This document shows, piece by piece, positions 24,001 through 30,000 of a stretch of DNA of 64,000 nt (position 1 is its first letter; each line of letters begins with the position of its first letter). The position numbers are program-made. Origin of the DNA: Candidatus Hydrogenedentota bacterium (lineage in GTDB: Bacteria; Hydrogenedentota; Hydrogenedentia; Hydrogenedentales; SLHB01); NCBI GenBank assembly GCA_045863295.1, contig BTWA01000024.1:1-64000 (forward strand). Direction: 5' to 3'.

Positions 24001-27000
24001 GAAGGTTTATATCCAGGACGGTTCATACTCCATTGACATGAAGCGTTACGATGATACGGATCGAAAAATCGTGGCCGATTGGACGATGCACATCGCCGAG
24101 CACTATAAGGGCAGGTCCGACGAAGAAAAGTTTGAAGGCAAGAGATTATTGGCCGAGATCCGAATCAACCCGGAAAATCACATAGATCTGAAGGAATTGC
24201 AGGTGCCGCTAAGCCTTGGCGTCGAGACCACCGAAAAATACAGGGAGTTCGAAGACCGGCATAACAAGCGCCGCAACAATGCCGAAAAACAGTAGGGAAG
24301 CCATCTAAAGAACCGGTTCGGACATCGTGGCCCAAATTCAGCGCCCGCCTGGCCAACGAATTACAATTTATATGCACGGAAATTCGTCGCACGGCTACGT
24401 CCGCAACGGCGGCTTCGAAAATAGCCGAATTCCACTACCGGTTGACTTTTTCGCCTGCCTGTAGCATTCTGCCATAGCGTGGTGGGACACGAAAAACAGC
24501 ACTGTTTGTACAACTTGAGGGCCATGCTATGCCGGATCGTCGTGATTACTACGTTGTCTGGACTGGAACCCTTCACATGGGCGATACGCCGGGCGTCTTC
24601 ATGGACGGCCAATACGCTGGATTGGTCGTGCAATTCCCCGTCTCGGTAACCTATGTAGACGACAATATCAAAACCGTCGAACTCCTGTTCGAGACCACGG
24701 AAGTCGAAATCTTTGATGGCAAAAAGCATGCCGTCTATTGGGATTGGAATCCGGGTTCAGCGTTTCCCGCTCCGGTTGGATTCATCGACGACACGGATCC
24801 GTTTCCAGGCCAGCCAGAACTGCATCCAGTATCCGTGCCCGTGAAGCAGGCCGCCAAGGGTGCGCATACCATTGCTATTCATATAAACCCCGACGTAAAA
24901 GAAGGCATGCGCGACGATTTCGTGTTGAAGCGATTGGAGGCGCACAACACAGCCGGAGTGAAGATTGGCTGGTAAGTGGCTGTGTCATTTGTTCTATGAA
25001 GACCCGCATCATGTACATCGAATGCAAGGCCGAAGGGCTTGCCGGCCCAGCCAGGATTGGCCGTGTCTCCTTTTCGAAATCGGGGAGATCGGTCAAGTAC
25101 CACAACAAGACTTTTCAAACACTGCGTGGCGCCGGATTCAAGTCGAACTACGTTGACGTTGAGTCCGGGGAGGAGTACTGGATTTCCGGTCCAAGGAAGG
25201 ACGGCCGGGATCGCCTTTACGGCGAACGCGTGCCTATCGAGATAGATGAGGATGTCCGGGTGGAATACTGGACTCGCATACGCCAGCGTCCTGAATGTCT
25301 GAGCGATTCGACTACTTGGTGATTCATAAAGATGGTAAACTCAAGAGCGGACGCTTTAATCGTCGAATTGTATAAGGATTTCAGTCCACCGTATCCCCTC
25401 ATTCCCAGACTCCGCAAAGCTCTGGAAGTGGTGCCGCCGCGGTACCTGATTGGTTTGGATCGTATCGTTCTCACTAACTTCGAAGCTTTGCCCCGCAATA
25501 AGCGGCGTGGAGTATTGGCAAGTACAAAGAGCGCATATTGGCAGGCTTGGAAAGACGAGCCTGCCTACATTGAGATTCTGGTTGACAAACATCTTCAGGA
25601 TTCCCCGGGCAATACGTTTCCACTTCGGCATAGATGCATCAGCAGAATTGCAATGACAATGTTTGGTGAGATCGGACATCACATCATTGATACAAAAATT
25701 GCTGTACAAGGTGTAGAACGGAAAGATGCCAGCGAGTACATGACAGAATTCACAATAGATCTGGGCAAACGTCAATGGTACTACCAGGTGGCTGCACTTG
25801 CTTGCTTCGCAGTTTATCCTTCATTTCTAAGATCCATGTGGCAGTTCTATCGCGACCCGGCCAAAGCTTTGTCATCCGGTAAGAAAGATCAAAGGAAGCT
25901 GGCCCAAAATGCAAAGGCCGAATCCAAACGGCACCGGATGAAGACAAAGAAGCGTGGATGAATTGCGTGCCAATTGAGCACTTGGTTTCGCGCCGCCCTC
26001 AACCCACGCGTGATTCCGCGCGCCAATTCGTTGCTTGCCCCCTCGTCACCGTCGGCGTATACTATGCTTCGTCGTCAATCACCCCCCAAGGAGGATCATT
26101 CACACCCAAACACGACCCTAACTGGTGCGTGGGCGCCAGGGAAGTACGGTGCAAATCCGTCGCAGACGCGCTGCTGTAACCGGGGACGAAACCCACTTGA
26201 TGCCACTGTCGGAAATCCGATGGGAAGGCGTGGGGAGTAGAACGATCCGGAAGCCAGAAGACCTGCCCACTGACGCAATCGCCGAATAGGCGACAACTTC
26301 GCGGGACAAGTTGCAGTGAAGCAGGCGACCCTCAGCCTTTCCTTCCTGCCTTCTTTCCCTTCGTTGAGATTTTGACGCAACCGCGGAACACCGTGCATTG
26401 GACATTGAGACGCACGGCGCCGCATACAGGGAAACTGCATCCATGAGGAAGGCACATCAAACCGGATTTACGTTAATTGAATTGCTCGTCGTCATTGCCA
26501 TTATTGGCATATTGGCTGCGCTGCTCCTGCCCGCACTCTCGCTCGCGCGGCAAAAGGCGCAATCTTCGGCCTGTGTGAACAATCTGCGCCAGCTTTACTT
26601 GGCGAACACCATGTATGCATCCGAGCACCACGGCTTCTATGTCGTCGCCGCGCCGGATATCAACACCGGGTTTGGCGGCCGGACCCGCTGGCACGGAGCA
26701 CGCGATACCGTTGACCCGTCCACGCCGTTCGACCCCGCAAAAGGACCACTGGCGGAATATCTGCCCGATGGCGGACGGGTGAAGGAGTGTCCGGTTTTCA
26801 CGGAATACCGGCAACACGAAGCGGGCGCGAATACCTTTGAAGGGGGCACAGGCGGCTACGGATACAATCAGGCCTATATCGGAGGCACTTCGTACTCAAA
26901 AGACTGGATGAACGCACCGCTGTACTCGACTCAGGATACGCGTATCCACAGCCCGGCGGAAACCATCATGTTTGCCGATGCGGCGCTACCGATGCCCGGG

Positions 27001-30000
27001 TATCTCATCGAGTACAGCTTTTTGGAACCGCCGCATTTCGCGACTCCGGAAAGCCCAACCGGAAACCCGGCGTGGGGATTTGCCTCACCCAGCATGCATT
27101 TCCGGCACAACGGCCGAGTCAACGTCGTGTGGGCGGATGGGCATGTGACGAGCGAGGAGTACGAGTGGACCCCGTCCCAGACAAACGTCTATGGCGGCGA
27201 CAACTACCGGTGGGGTGTTGGCTTTTTTGGTCCCAAGGATAACCGGCTGTTTGACGTAGGGCCGAAAATTCGGTATTAGGGGTTTTTGGAGCCGCCTGTG
27301 TCCAGGTGGCTCCACCTTTAACGCCTTGTAAATGAATAACTTGTATTAGAACGCAAATTCTCCTTGACAGATCGCCAAGTCGTATGGCACATTGAGCATC
27401 ACTTGAACAAACTTTCAGTATATTTTGAGGGGAGATGAAGATTATGGCCGCCAAGAAAGAAGACGTTCGCTCCAAAGCGCTCGACATCGCCGTAGGACAA
27501 CTGGAAAAGCAGTTTGGCCGGGGCACCCTTGTGCGTTTGGGCGACCATCACAGCGCCAATCCTGCCCAGTCTATCTCCACGGGCAGCTTATCCCTCGATC
27601 TCGCTACAGGCATTGGCGGTCTGCCCCGGGGGCGCGTCATTGAGGTATTCGGGCCGGAATCGTCGGGTAAGACCACCCTGGCTCTCCACGTGGTGGGAAA
27701 TGCCCAAAAAGCAGGTGGGATTGCATGCTTTATCGACGCGGAGCATGCGTTGGATCCGACCTTCGCCACGAAACTGGGCGTCGATATCGACAATTTGCTG
27801 GTTTCCCAGCCCGACACGGCCGAACAGGCCCTCGAAATCTGCGAAACCCTCGTGCGGAGTAATGCCGTGGACGTAATCGTCATTGACTCCGTGGCGGCGT
27901 TGGTTCCAAAGGCCGAAGTGGAAGGCGACATGGGCGACTCACACATGGGTCTCCAAGCACGCCTGATGTCGCAGGCCTTGCGTAAACTGACCGCATCCAT
28001 CAGCCGGTCGCATACGCTGGTTATTTTTATCAACCAGATCCGCGACAAAATCGGCGTCATGTTCGGTAGTCCCGAAACCACGACAGGCGGCCGAGCCCTG
28101 AAGTTCTATGCCAGCATGCGAATCGATGTGCGCCGAATTGGTTCCATTAAAGAACGTGAAATGGATGTCGGTAACCGCGTCCGGGCCAAAGTGGTCAAGA
28201 ATAAGCTGAGTCCGCCCTTTCGCACCGCCGAATTTGATATCCTGTTCAACGAGGGCATTTCCCTCGAAGGCGACGTGCTCGACCTCGCCATCAAGGAAAA
28301 GCTCATTAACAAGAGCGGTGCCTGGTTTTCCATGGACGGGGAGAACCTCGGACAAGGCAGGGAAACCACGCGCATGTACCTCAAGGAACACCCGGAGGTG
28401 GTCGCGCGGCTTCGCGAACAGATCATGAAAGCGCAAAATTTCGCATGGTCGGCATCGGATGCCGATGAAAGGGCAGAGGACGACGAACCCATTGATGAAG
28501 GCTGAACCGCCACGCGCGTCAAGACGGCATACCGTAAGCCGATCGGATCTCTCGGCGCGGTATGCACGCCTCTGGCTGGTTGCCCTATTGCTGTTTACAG
28601 GTCTGCTCTCCGCGGGAGCCTTGTTCATTAAGCATGAATTGGAGTCCGTCAGGGAGACGTTTCTCTCGGTGGTCAAAGGGCAGGTTGGCGCGGAGTTCAA
28701 CATCTCGTCCATATCCGTCTCCGGACTGCGTGGGTTCAAAGTTGCCAATCTGGAAACTGTCTTGGCACTTCCAGGCGGGCCGAATGTGGAAGTCTCCGTA
28801 CCGGAGGCGGTTTTGCATCTGAACCTGTTCGACCTGCTGTCCCGAACCATATCGATTGAGTCCGTGGAATTGCGCGGCGCTACGTTGGTTGTCGACAAAT
28901 TCCCCGAGTGGCTGGAATCCCAAGCGAGCCCAGTCCGGGCATCCTTTCTTGCCAATCCGCTGATGCCCGCGCGTTTCACCGGGCGCGAATGCAGACTTAT
29001 GTTGCGTTCCGACGGGGACGATTCACTAGTTTCGCTCACAGACATGTCGTTGGATATCGTCCGGCGCCCACAAACCGGCTGGATTCAGGCCGAGGTATCC
29101 GGCGCGTTTAACGGTTCTCCTGATTTGCCTTTCGATCTGACCTATCAATCCAACGGCGACGATCAATTCCACTTAAGAGCAAATACCAGCGTCATTACAC
29201 CCGCCGAAATTGCTCTCTTCTGGCCGGACGTTGGAAAGTACGTGGACACGGCACAGATGAAGCAGCCCGTGGTAACCGTCGATCGAATCGGAGATACGCT
29301 GGCGGCGGGCCTTGAGGCAGGCTTTGCGGATTTCAAAGCGATCAATCAGCCGGACTACCTGGATGCCCTTAACGGAACGCTGCGTGCTCAGGGGACCTTC
29401 GATGTGCGCTCCAAATCACTCAATGTGACATTTGCCAAAGTTTCGTCGAATGCGTTGGAGGCCGTGATATCCGGTGATATTCGTCTTGACGGCGAGGCGC
29501 CGGTGTTCGACTTGCACGTGGACGGACAGAGCGCGTCGGTTCAGCCTGCTCTCGAATATTATTTGAAGGATCCCACGGCGGGTTATGGGCAAGTATCACT
29601 CGATTTGGACGATCCGTGCCTCGTGTCCGGGTCGATCGCCGGCACTGCTTCCGAATTGTCCGGGAACTTTTCCGCTACTGTTTCCGGCGGAACGGCTGAA
29701 TACAAACCCGCGAAAGAAGAGTGGCCCTCGGCAACCGTACAACTAGGCCGTATCGAAGTGGAATGGGATGTGGCCGAGAAGTCGCCGAGAGTCTTCATGC
29801 GCGTACAAGATGGAACCATTCAACACGCGAAGACAAAGACGCAGGCGGAAAGTCTCGCAGGAATGGTAACCCTCCAGAACAGCGAAATTCGGATCGATCC
29901 AATGACCGCGGAATACCGGAATCAGTCGCTCATGATTGAAGGTCACTACGACATTGAAACCCGCAAAGGGGAAGCCGCCTTTTACGGCACGGTCGCGGGT

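Follow-up and report, generated by a model that had tools for sequence, protein, structure and literature searches.

Among the closest described systems are the Btu loci of Bacteroides thetaiotaomicron, which, according to PMC8941943, PMC10404256 and PMC13616437, combine BtuB under riboswitch control with BtuG, BtuH, and BtuJ as surface binders. The H-X9-DG/DUF1559 family of Planctomycetota and Verrucomicrobiota, which has 68 paralogs in Planctopirus limnophila, is of unknown function according to PMC10632474. Our literature search found no paper on a B12-riboswitch-controlled pilin. Here we describe such a pilin gene from a Candidatus Hydrogenedentota bacterium and conclude that its product probably belongs to a B12-scavenging system, as yet undescribed, of bacteria without the usual outer-membrane B12 transporter, because the gene is kept behind the riboswitch in most of the relatives examined, often beside a gene for a BtuH-domain protein.

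The riboswitch and the pilin gene

The source genome (G000; assembly GCA_045863295.1; GTDB lineage Hydrogenedentota; Hydrogenedentia; Hydrogenedentales; SLHB01) comprises 6.34 Mb in 88 contigs and is 96.25% complete. The window, that is, the whole stretch of DNA analyzed, spans positions 1 to 64,000 of contig BTWA01000024.1 (C24). The features of the locus are as follows:

26035..26063, + strand: promoter-like site (TTGCCC, 17 nt, TATACT), 43 nt 5' of the aptamer
26106..26284, + strand: cobalamin riboswitch aptamer RF00174 (cmscan, 95.1 bits vs a gathering score of 31.5, E 2.1e-22)
26285..26442, + strand: expression platform, the region between the aptamer and the pilin ATG
26329..26362, + strand: 34-nt pyrimidine-rich tract with the conserved core UUCCUGCC...CUUUCCC
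26428..26434, + strand: purine run AGGGAAA, 9 nt 5' of the ATG, read from the sequence
26443..27279, + strand: pilin gene, encoding a 278-aa prepilin-type protein (H-X9-DG; B12-linked subfamily; ATG to stop; family scores)
26443..26466, + strand: prepilin leader MRKAHQTG (PF07963, TIGR02532), predicted peptidase cut before F9
27106..27144, + strand: H-X9-DG motif, H222 to D232-G233-H234 (TIGR04294 and conservation)

The aptamer match covers the full model (1-189 of 189). No other Rfam match occurs in the window, and G000 has no second RF00174 match. An earlier note on this DNA had described a sole cobalamin riboswitch ahead of a 278-aa pilin gene, no terminator, and recA as the next gene after 164 nt, and we found the same: the distance from the aptamer end to the ATG at 26443 is 158 nt, and recA (PF00154, 451 bits) starts at 27435, 155 nt downstream of the pilin gene, or 164 nt, as in the note, when counted to the second ATG at 27444. 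A longer reading frame from TTG 26398 (the longest ORF, 293 aa) was disfavored, as the short basic leaders of the orthologs fit the ATG at 26443.

The promoter-like site is weak and purely positional, with one site found vs 1.1 expected in shuffled sequences. No terminator-like sites were detected in 25700-27600, leaving the expression platform without an intrinsic terminator, and its fold is not distinctive (z-score -0.69). Pyrimidine tracts of at least 20 nt, 42-99 nt past the aptamer end, occur in 17 of 21 riboswitch-to-pilin leaders, compared with 1.35% of 2000 windows of 190 nt drawn at random from G000; they are also present behind riboswitches that lead other genes. In the minimum-energy fold, the purine run, a possible ribosome-binding site, is base-paired to UUUCCCU within the tract. 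Predicted duplexes of the tract reach -28.5 kcal/mol with the 3' half of the aptamer and -14.8 kcal/mol with the Shine-Dalgarno region, and the tract is a candidate anti-Shine-Dalgarno strand, anti-aptamer strand, or Rho loading site. We infer that cobalamin represses the pilin gene through RF00174.

The protein carries the full prepilin signature of the type IV pilin/pseudopilin superfamily: the leader ends in Gly, the N-terminal helix is hydrophobic, and E13, which is the Glu at mature position 5, is invariant across 88 sequences. It scores above the cut-offs of PF07963 N_methyl (35.1 bits vs 21.2), TIGR02532 (32.2 bits vs 16.3), and TIGR04294 H-X9-DG (24.4 bits vs 19, residues 219-236). Around the H-X9-DG motif, F220, R221, and D232 are invariant, and H219, H222, W230, and H234 are conserved in at least 90% of the same 88 sequences. 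Every conserved residue is kept in the G000 protein. By contrast, it falls far below the cut-off of every equivalog model, including GspG TIGR01710 (36.2 bits vs 88.85) and PilA NF041775 (40.9 bits vs 400), both of which match only the N-terminal region. The protein is also not a member of PF07596 DUF1559 (SBP_bac_10), scoring 22.8 bits, just below the cut-off of 23.3, over residues 35-65 only (profile positions 3-33 of 268). Many of its orthologs carry a precomputed PF07596 label.

Linkage of the pilin gene to riboswitches in Hydrogenedentota

An ortholog of the pilin is found in 111 of the 126 phylum genomes that are at least 80% complete (81 of 86 high-quality genomes) and is single-copy in nearly all carriers. 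Within the family, RF00174 lies upstream of the pilin gene, sharing its contig and strand, in 37 of the 45 genomes with the ortholog, by a hand-made tally of related genomes that are not independent samples. The riboswitch directly precedes the pilin gene in 22 of these and lies at 2.2-3.6 kb in the other 15; in the 10 of these 15 whose loci were read, only two genes, A and B, intervene. Of the remaining eight family genomes, five have the contig broken in a way that is consistent with the same operon. Outside the family, at least 41 of 68 genomes show this linkage, with 15 genomes falling outside the scoring for want of 62 unlisted riboswitch rows. Taking both groups together, most of the other cases are broken contigs or genomes affected by unlisted rows. 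Both counts exceed the 13 of 50 loci reported earlier.

The flanks of the locus are not conserved (recA and the upstream gene in 0 of 50 loci of relatives). In split versions of the system (G004, G035, and G006), every piece has its own riboswitch. Other riboswitches of the family lead btuF-like ABC importers and further pilin-like genes where the target could be identified; several of these loci ended too soon to be read, and at one the ORFs behind the riboswitch could not be identified. These data support the conclusion that the pilin is a member of the B12 regulon and, in Hydrogenedentota, its conserved core.

Companion proteins A and B

Protein A, present in many relatives, is a beta-propeller surface protein; there was no BtuG chain among its 50 listed Foldseek matches. 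Protein B had been set down in the earlier note as an unknown secreted DPWAD-motif protein missing from G000. Its absence was borne out, and the word unknown no longer applies: a profile of 10 B proteins matched, in two stretches each, the BtuG1 H-domain (PDB 8BLW_B, E 4.1e-18) and BtuH2 with B12 (PDB 7BIZ_A, E 7.1e-14), which makes the N-terminal domain of B a homolog of the BtuH-type B12-binding domain, the C-terminal globular domain in BtuH2. In BtuH2 the homologous domain binds B12 with a KD of 6 pM, as given in PMC8941943. Contact residues taken from the same source were mapped by hand onto B at seven mappable positions, of which Asn399, Phe401, and Leu578 are kept and Gln333, Tyr510, Trp511, and Trp577 are changed; His476 lies in an unaligned stretch. 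Both A and B end in PEP-CTERM-like anchors, with PF07589 reaching its cut-off only in locus L055. Wherever B and the pilin gene share a contig, B directly precedes it, and in the two loci that were read, B continues in frame into the prepilin leader.

Neither A nor B was detected in G000 by tblastn at 1e-3 or by HMM searches at E <= 10, in which the positive control worked. B is absent from G000 and 28 other family genomes, and 21 of these 29, G000 among them, keep the riboswitch and the pilin. No DUF4465/BtuJ was found in any of the 54 family genomes, G000 included. As A, B, and DUF4465/BtuJ are all absent, G000 has no known surface binder. In the tree of the pilin, direct and A/B-containing arrangements are intermixed, forcing at least three changes, and the G000 protein is 69-71% identical to orthologs of both arrangements.

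Attachment is a common role of type IV pili, and G000 is without the only partner that bears a known B12-binding domain. Both points suit a response to B12 starvation apart from direct uptake, such as an adhesion or contact pilus to B12 producers, or a riboswitch left over after the loss of A and B. We hold this to be quite improbable: cotranscription and fusion with a BtuH-domain protein implicate the ligand itself, the retention of riboswitch and pilin in 21 genomes without B across at least three changes is unlike decay, and the conserved residues are all intact in G000.

Predicted structure of the pilin

The AF2 model of the pilin (pLDDT 94, pTM 0.89) has type IV pilins and pseudopilins as its best VIA-align matches, at Z of only 5.4 to 3 (EpsG, 4.7; ComP, 4.3; PulG, 3.4). 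Foldseek returned nothing at E <= 0.001 and matched only the helix. As the earlier note had it, the head gives no hint of a corrin site: no corrin-binding fold was recognizable by Foldseek, VIA-align, or profile comparison, and the profile of the pilin is unrelated to that of the BtuH-like domain (probability 0.4%).

Rather than a fibre subunit, the protein might be an inner-membrane-anchored periplasmic protein, held by its N-terminal helix, that binds corrinoid or passes it to a BtuF-like protein, with another route across the outer membrane. Consistent with such an anchor, the sequence is pilin-like only in the N-terminal helix, the head, at about 220 aa, is large and contains numerous conserved His, Trp, and Tyr residues, and in none of the loci whose neighbors were read does the pilin gene stand beside secretin, ATPase, or platform genes. 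We nevertheless regard it as unlikely, since the prepilin signature is complete with Glu5 invariant, the whole model aligns, if weakly, to assembled pilins, and the topology of the B-pilin fusions requires cleavage by prepilin peptidase. It also offers no account of how the outer membrane is crossed where a TonB system is missing.

Gene inventory of G000

G000 has neither CobS nor CbiC, and the inventory supports the view that it cannot make or remodel B12 and needs to import it. Six B12-binding domains score above cut-off. A BtuFCD-like importer is present, whose binding protein (Peripla_BP_2), ATPase, and permease share 48-64% identity with those of a set led by a riboswitch in genome G043; the genome-wide RF00174 scan detected no riboswitch at this operon. 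The earlier claim that the genome lacks a TonB-dependent receptor stands, as no PF00593 barrel, PF07715 plug, or TonB_C PF03544 was found. Such barrels score above cut-off in 12 of 54 family genomes, and none of them adjoins a riboswitch. Machinery for a pilin is encoded at the level of the genome, with seven secretins, 19 T2SSE ATPases, and one Peptidase_A24 above cut-off, the last being the single prepilin peptidase gene, at C25:51430.

This abundance of T2SSE ATPases and secretins would also fit a pseudopilin of a secretion machine, made at low B12, that serves to export or display B12-binding surface proteins (A, B, or others) and not to import the vitamin. The model resembles T2SS pseudopilins (EpsG, PulG) as well as pili, and in many relatives the gene is cotranscribed with those of two exported proteins. 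However, 21 of the 29 family genomes without B keep riboswitch and pilin, and G000 also lacks A. PEP-CTERM-like anchors, which A and B bear, accompany exosortase sorting, not T2SS, and the B-pilin fusions favor a stoichiometric partner over a cargo. On balance, a role in export seems doubtful.

Proposed role of the pilin in B12 acquisition

The genome neither synthesizes nor remodels B12, has B12-dependent proteins and a BtuFCD-like importer, and lacks a TonB system; therefore, a role of the pilin at the BtuB/TonB step is the likeliest. We lean toward reading the pilin as a B12-repressed, machine-built subunit for corrinoid acquisition that takes this step. The reading builds on what was observed at this locus and in its relatives, namely, the riboswitch, the features of the pilin, the conserved linkage, the BtuH homology, and the gene inventory, and would run as follows. 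When cobalamin is plentiful, the RF00174 riboswitch would turn the pilin gene down. The pilin would be cleaved by prepilin peptidase, built into a type II secretion/type IV pilus-like machine, and serve corrinoid acquisition at the cell envelope, possibly at the tip or in the body of a short fibre that can retract and that works through a secretin. The fibre may capture corrinoid or a corrinoid-loaded binder, and the corrinoid would then cross the outer membrane to the periplasmic BtuF-like protein. In relatives, the pilin appears to be cotranscribed, and sometimes translationally fused, with a surface-anchored protein bearing the BtuH2-homologous domain; G000 lost A and B or never had them, and the riboswitch and the pilin remain.

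Breadth of the B12 link among H-X9-DG proteins

The earlier note had extended a B12 role of the pilin to a first function for the whole H-X9-DG/DUF1559 family. Membership in the B12 regulon, the need for import, and the lack of a TonB system stood up; the extension overreached. By motif, G000 has 21 H-X9-DG genes, the next-best paralog matches the pilin in the N-terminal helix only, and the head is not common to the others. The B12-linked subfamily comprises 230 cluster representatives at E <= 1e-30, compared with 242,134 at E <= 1e-3. Among 79 homologous loci, all scanned with our own nhmmer profile and 19 also with cmscan, a B12 riboswitch was detected at only five, which are the five most similar to the G000 pilin. 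Carriers in other phyla are Chthoniobacteraceae, two Planctomycetota (Kuenenia among them), and one contig with the other riboswitch class, and the two cases known beforehand were reproduced: the Kuenenia homolog (RF00174, 87.3 bits) and the contig with RF01689 (44.7 bits). The B12-riboswitch link is a property of one subfamily, not of all H-X9-DG proteins.

A paralog at C32:11022-11990 had been proposed to capture heme. It scores 41.8 bits on PF07596, above cut-off. As claimed, it adjoins an operon of Peripla_BP_2, FecCD, ABC ATPase, and HemS/ChuX, the start of which shares 4 nt with the paralog; the ATPase was identified from its translation and the other members were scanned. Synteny of this pilin with hmuT holds in six of six relatives with this hmuT, although these represent only two other genera and six further close orthologs of the heme pilin occur without such an hmuT.

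Comparison with known systems

Like the Bacteroides Btu loci, the loci described here are B12-riboswitch operons of exported scavenging proteins, with a homolog of the BtuH B12-binding domain in protein B of relatives, the BtuG fold class in protein A, and a BtuFCD-type inner-membrane importer. Unlike them, they have no TonB-dependent receptor or BtuB adjoining a riboswitch (none at all in G000), their surface proteins have PEP-CTERM-like ends in place of lipoprotein signals, and no DUF4465/BtuJ occurs in the 54 family genomes; the pilin is the constant member and in G000 stands alone. With the E. coli-type btuB leader, the locus shares the same aptamer family before an envelope protein that would be needed at low B12, and a Peripla_BP_2 ABC importer is present. 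The regulated gene, however, encodes a prepilin and not a 22-strand barrel, there is no TonB_C, Plug, or barrel domain in G000, and no riboswitch precedes its ABC importer.

For DNA, it is established that a fibre retracting through a secretin can take up a ligand. The prepilin leader and Glu5 are common to our pilin, the DNA-binding minor pilin ComP of DNA-uptake type IV pili, and the T2SS pseudopilins GspG, PulG, and EpsG, and the model of our pilin resembles their helix-plus-sheet fold, if weakly. In contrast to these, our pilin has a head of roughly double the size that bears the H-X9-DG motif, the proposed ligand is a vitamin, and no machinery genes adjoin it. The N-terminal helix and C-terminal H-X9-DG motif are those of the H-X9-DG/DUF1559 family (TIGR04294, PF07596); within that family, the pilin belongs to a distinct, mostly single-copy subfamily that alone is tied to B12 riboswitches.

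Riboswitch, leader and pilin gene

The genome under study (G000; 6.34 Mb, 96.25% complete) contains one cobalamin riboswitch in its entire assembly, which is also the sole gathering-level Rfam match in the window. It precedes a gene for a prepilin-type H-X9-DG protein, hereafter the pilin:

26106-26284, + strand: full-length cobalamin riboswitch aptamer, RF00174 (95.1 bits, E 2.1e-22)
26329-26362, + strand: pyrimidine-rich tract, core UUCCUGCC...CUUUCCC (for relatives also written UUCCUGCC...CUUUYCCC), recurring in relatives' leaders
26443-27279, + strand: pilin gene, ATG to stop, 278 aa, starting 158 nt after the aptamer

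The earlier note had placed a B12 riboswitch ahead of this gene, and the aptamer score and spacing confirm it. The next gene, recA, lies 155 nt past the pilin. The protein exceeds the cut-offs for PF07963 (prepilin N-terminal motif, 35.1 bits), TIGR02532 (likewise prepilin, 32.2 bits) and TIGR04294 (H-X9-DG domain, 24.4 bits versus a cut-off of 19); its DUF1559 match, which spans 31 residues only, is just below the Pfam cut-off (22.8 versus 23.3 bits).

A weak promoter-like site lies 43 nt 5' of the aptamer, no terminator-like site was found around the riboswitch and the pilin gene, and 26270-26470 has no distinctive fold (z -0.69). The pyrimidine tract is a recurrent leader element: it lies 42-99 nt 3' of the aptamer whatever gene comes next, reaches at least 20 nt in 17 of 21 riboswitch-to-pilin leaders, and also follows riboswitches that lead gene A (described below) or btuF-like genes, while just 1.35% of 2000 random 190-nt windows of G000 contain such a tract. 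Computed pairing energies are -28.5 kcal/mol with the purine-rich 3' half of the aptamer and -14.8 kcal/mol with AGGGAAA directly before the start codon. These pairings would fit an OFF switch that sequesters the ribosome-binding site, with the tract as a candidate anti-SD or anti-aptamer strand; the tract may instead be a Rho loading site, a role that its C-rich, G-poor composition suits equally well. The metatranscriptome run X22 yielded one 168-nt contig over 26218-26385, comprising the aptamer 3' end and the platform (1 mismatch, depth 3.4), and no contigs over the pilin coding sequence; because such contigs cannot show transcript level or ends, we draw no conclusion from them. Tandem RF00174 pairs, about 110-280 nt apart, head one operon in the related genomes G022-G026 (e.g., locus L035:273-891) and G010 (locus L008).

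Conservation of the riboswitch-pilin linkage

Exactly one pilin orthologue was identified in 45 of the 53 other genomes of the GTDB family (E <= 1e-60, 56-71% identity), and RF00174 in 48 of all 54, G000 included. We tallied the linkage by hand from the coordinates of riboswitches, orthologues and gene B, and read part of the loci. The riboswitch ends no more than about 500 nt from the pilin match in 22 family genomes; in another 15 it is on the same strand, 2.2-3.6 kb upstream; in all ten loci read of those 15, only two genes, A and B, stand between riboswitch and pilin. In five genomes (G012, G027, G040, G042, and G043), the contig starts inside or just before B and continues into the pilin gene; in four of them, a separate contig ends with a riboswitch, A and, in some cases, the first part of B, and G040 has riboswitch contigs without a readable gene. 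These five arrangements are assembly breaks. G029 and G041 have B followed by the pilin gene and no riboswitch found anywhere in the genome, and the sole riboswitch of G048 is at a contig edge. Across the 45 genomes, no orthologue with a clearly different upstream region was seen. Neither recA nor the 209-aa upstream gene, which flank the G000 unit, was found in any of 50 loci of relatives; the conserved unit is the riboswitch plus the pilin gene.

The linkage extends through the phylum, with the reservation that phylum and family counts come from related genomes and are not independent samples. Among 126 phylum genomes at least 80% complete, an orthologue (E <= 1e-40) was detected in 111, including 81 of the 86 high-quality genomes and 13 of 15 families, and was absent at this threshold from both sampled genomes outside the order; RF00174 was found in 120. 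Outside the family, 68 genomes bear the orthologue, and 53 of these could be scored for linkage (all but 15); in at least 41 of the 68, a riboswitch on the contig and strand of the pilin gene lies no more than 6.5 kb upstream of it. The modal distance there, for the listed riboswitches, is about 2.25 kb, which would fit the order riboswitch, B, pilin. In 12 of the 68, the listed riboswitches are all on contigs other than that of the pilin, and in at least seven of these a contig end lies within about 3 kb upstream of the pilin gene.

In a tree of 34 pilin orthologues (built without the frameshifted L089, L057 and orthologues whose loci were not fetched), direct and A/B-containing arrangements are intermixed, and well-supported branches force at least three changes. 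Because of this, and because the G000 pilin is equally close (69-71% identical) to orthologues of both arrangements, the pilin stays behind the switch whether B is present or not.

Other riboswitch targets in the family, where several loci were too short to read, include btuF-like ABC importers (G018, G019, G020, and G043) and other pilin-like genes (G009, G020, G022, and G046). A riboswitch of G043 (locus L024) leads two ORFs without an assigned identity. In G022 (locus L020, G022:C11:46300-53000), a tandem riboswitch leads a different DUF1559 pilin (PF07596, 26.4 bits), which stands where sister genomes carry the orthologue.

Companion genes A and B

Protein B, 500-730 aa long, carries a signal peptide, and its N-terminal domain (about 300 aa) is conserved. 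A profile built from ten B proteins matched PDB entries 8BLW chain B (E 4.1e-18, chain residues 391-515 and 611-659) and 7BIZ chain A (E 7.1e-14, chain residues 224-335 and 390-485). The latter is described as BtuH2 of Bacteroides thetaiotaomicron, a surface B12 binder with cyanocobalamin in its C-terminal globular domain and a KD of 6.4 pM (PMC8941943); the former is the BtuB1-BtuG1 complex, in which some 250 residues that extend BtuG1 at its C-terminus are reported to be homologous to BtuH2 (PMC10404256). On the strength of these matches, B is a BtuH-domain homologue. It is the secreted DPWAD-motif protein that the earlier note had called unknown and lacking in G000; the lack is borne out. 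Placing the BtuH2 contact residues given in PMC8941943 by hand on the profile-PDB alignment, we found that B retains Asn399 (invariant among B proteins), Phe401 and Leu578 but not Gln333, Tyr510, Trp511 and Trp577; His476 is unaligned. With part of the contacts kept and part not, B12 binding by B is likely but not assured. An ESM Atlas search with B was uninformative (best score 0.80).

Protein A (about 345-385 aa) is a predicted beta-propeller (pLDDT 81.5) that matched no family in Pfam or NCBIfam. The PDB profile search returned YncE alone (E 0.013), and Foldseek generic beta-propellers, with no BtuG chain among the 50 matches listed. At their C-termini, A and B each have a Pro-containing motif, then a hydrophobic stretch and basic residues, a putative anchor that resembles PEP-CTERM; the Pfam PEP-CTERM model scored over its cut-off only in a homologue from Chthoniobacteraceae. 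The A proteins of G042 (L029:746-1873) and G043 (L025:371-1660) end without such an anchor in two DVTRTG...IQTVINVVLGIE-like repeats, which look dockerin-like.

Gene B is present in 25 of 54 family genomes and lies directly 5' of the pilin gene wherever both share a contig. In both fusions read, L004:2447-5428 (G001) and L054:2296-5370 (a Hydrogenedentota MAG), B has no stop codon, and the reading frame continues through its C-terminal membrane segment and basic tail into the prepilin leader, forming one ORF of about 1000 aa. Such a topology would make sense only if prepilin peptidase separates B from the pilin. An open frame of at least 750 aa runs into the pilin in 25 of the 111 orthologues. 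Split operons carry a separate riboswitch ahead of each part:

G004 and G035: riboswitch-A-B and riboswitch-pilin
G006: riboswitch-A and riboswitch-B-pilin

Searches for either companion in G000 agree with one another: tblastn with 17 A and B proteins matched nothing but the pilin, A and B HMMs found nothing at E <= 10 among 35,235 six-frame ORFs (these models recovered 9 and 10 of 10 control loci), and a whole-genome B profile search found none. DUF4465/BtuJ was likewise absent from all 54 family genomes, G000 included.

The switch tracks a pilin subfamily

The AlphaFold2 model of the pilin is confident (pLDDT 94, pTM 0.89, from an 88-sequence alignment). Foldseek found no solved structure at E <= 0.001, aligning only the N-terminal helix to pilins, and in the PDB sequence search solved pilins likewise matched only the first ~60 residues, which form this helix. 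In a VIA-align search of 48,161 representative chains, type IV pilins and type II secretion pseudopilins ranked top, with Z scores (PilA4 5.4, EpsG 4.7, PilV 4.4, ComP 4.3) that are weak and in a range that may mean only a common arrangement. From these searches, the enlarged head resembles a pilin at best, and nothing in it suggests a corrin site; hhalign detected no relation between it and the BtuH-like domain (probability 0.4%). Conserved head positions in the 88 sequences are C44, C116, R82-W83-G85, G137-G138-Y139-G140-Y141-N142, E190, H219-F220-R221-H222, W230, D232 and H234.

At E <= 1e-3, 242,134 of 1.84 billion cluster representatives match the pilin; at E <= 1e-30 just 230 do, and the best 150 of these 230 are mostly matched near full length. 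A motif scan detected 21 H-X9-DG pilin-like genes in G000, where the next-best paralogue has the N-terminal 70 residues alone in common with the pilin. As judged by sequence similarity, the pilin belongs to a distinct subfamily. Searched with the pilin alignment, the GTDB species genomes yielded 79 loci, mostly generic pilins because only the N-terminal motif of the alignment was used. All 79 were screened by nhmmer with a profile of the family's own riboswitches, which is less sensitive than a covariance model; cmscan was run on 19, and the other 60 rest on the nhmmer screen. A B12-class riboswitch lies upstream on the same strand in exactly five, and these are the five closest to the pilin.

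Riboswitch-linked pilins among the 79 loci, with identity to the G000 pilin
Hydrogenedentota MAG, 58%: riboswitch, B-pilin fusion
Chthoniobacteraceae MAG, 46%: riboswitch, PEP-CTERM protein, small BtuH-like protein, pilin
Planctomycetota MAG, 42%: riboswitch, small BtuH-like protein, pilin split by frameshift
Contig labelled Clostridium, 35%: RF01689, pilin
Candidatus Kuenenia, 33%: riboswitch, pilin

The Kuenenia case and a contig with the other B12 riboswitch class had been reported in the earlier note, and both were recovered. Because the riboswitch occurs in only the five most similar loci, the B12 switch tracks the subfamily and not the family. Extending an outer-membrane-crossing role to all H-X9-DG proteins, as the earlier note suggested, is a hypothesis. 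In the Planctomycetota MAG (L089:4495-5303), either a frameshift or an error of assembly breaks the orthologue into two ORFs (183 and 120 aa).

A paralogue in a haem operon

The haem-operon paralogue reported previously is present at the first position of a haem uptake and utilisation operon on another contig:

C32:11022-11990 (operon region 11022-15814): DUF1559 pilin (41.8 bits, over the cut-off)

The genes are the pilin, Peripla_BP_2 (hmuT), FecCD, an ABC ATPase (read from the translation) and HemS/ChuX. The pilin gene overlaps hmuT by 4 nt, and it is the only H-X9-DG paralogue of G000 to overlap its downstream neighbour. An hmuT orthologue (E <= 1e-40) was found in six other family genomes, five of one genus, with a pilin orthologue directly upstream in all six; in genera g13 and g18, six further close orthologues of the pilin occur without such an hmuT, and the pilin is one of a multi-copy group, for which G000 has 12 matches. 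The link to haem is suggestive but narrow, and extending an outer-membrane-crossing role to haem would be hypothetical.

B12-related genes and envelope machinery of G000

Domain searches of G000 detected neither the barrel nor the plug of a TonB-dependent receptor, nor a TonB C-terminal domain, which bears out the reported lack of such receptors; in the family, a barrel scored over the cut-off in 12 of 54 genomes, none of them next to a riboswitch. The balance of envelope machines is unusual, with seven secretins and 19 T2SSE-type ATPases alongside this lack; there is one prepilin peptidase, and about six of the ATPases appear, from their frame length, to have the size of retraction ATPases. 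A set comprising a Peripla_BP_2 protein, an ABC ATPase and a permease (C2:276371-279185), 48-64% identical to the riboswitch-led set of G043, has no riboswitch of its own. CobS and CbiC were not found in G000; six B12-binding domains (one within a 1252-aa frame) scored over the cut-off, and there are two short Meth_synt_2 proteins.

Discussion

Our full-text literature searches returned no paper in which any pilin, pseudopilin, DUF1559 or H-X9-DG protein is linked to B12 uptake or to a B12 riboswitch, and the DUF1559 papers found did not concern B12. Term searches found no "pilin" in a 2026 review of the Bacteroides relay (PMC13616437) or in a DUF4465 paper (PMC13398666). According to the review, BtuH homologues are mostly from Bacteroidota and three Firmicutes also have them, although supplements of the Btu papers may list others. 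A verrucomicrobial isolate described in 2026 is reported to have a pulG-like pseudopilin inside an alginate-use cluster, 67 homologues in its genome and a pseudopilin over-expressed on alginate (PMC13274419), a hint that other paralogues go with other substrates.

The riboswitch-pilin association is real, and its link to B12 is robust. Our preferred reading of the pilin is an envelope component that is repressed by B12 and serves corrinoid acquisition. The earlier note went further, proposing that these pseudopilins capture B12 across the outer membrane in place of BtuB: the B12 link stands, but the crossing is something we infer, with nothing in the head to point to a corrin site. As a device replacing BtuB and TonB, the pilin would nonetheless offer the most attractive mechanism. 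A wider reading, which we consider rather doubtful, is that H-X9-DG pilins are substrate-specific adaptors of TonB-independent import, in which short retractable type IV-like fibres, acting through secretins, would bring scarce nutrients across the outer membrane, cobalamin here and haem in the C32 case; if so, the family's great expansion across Planctomycetota, Verrucomicrobiota and Hydrogenedentota would reflect a range of uptake specificities.

Vitamin B12 is scarce and contested in microbial communities. If the pilin acts in its capture or passage, this would be a new vitamin uptake route and the first ligand-defined foothold in a family of hundreds of thousands of proteins with no assigned function, and BtuH-type B12 binders would extend well beyond Bacteroidota. 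To our knowledge, BtuB driven by TonB is the sole known Gram-negative outer-membrane route for B12; here a whole bacterial order, some of whose members are B12 auxotrophs without any TonB system, holds a pilin, not a barrel, behind its B12 switch.
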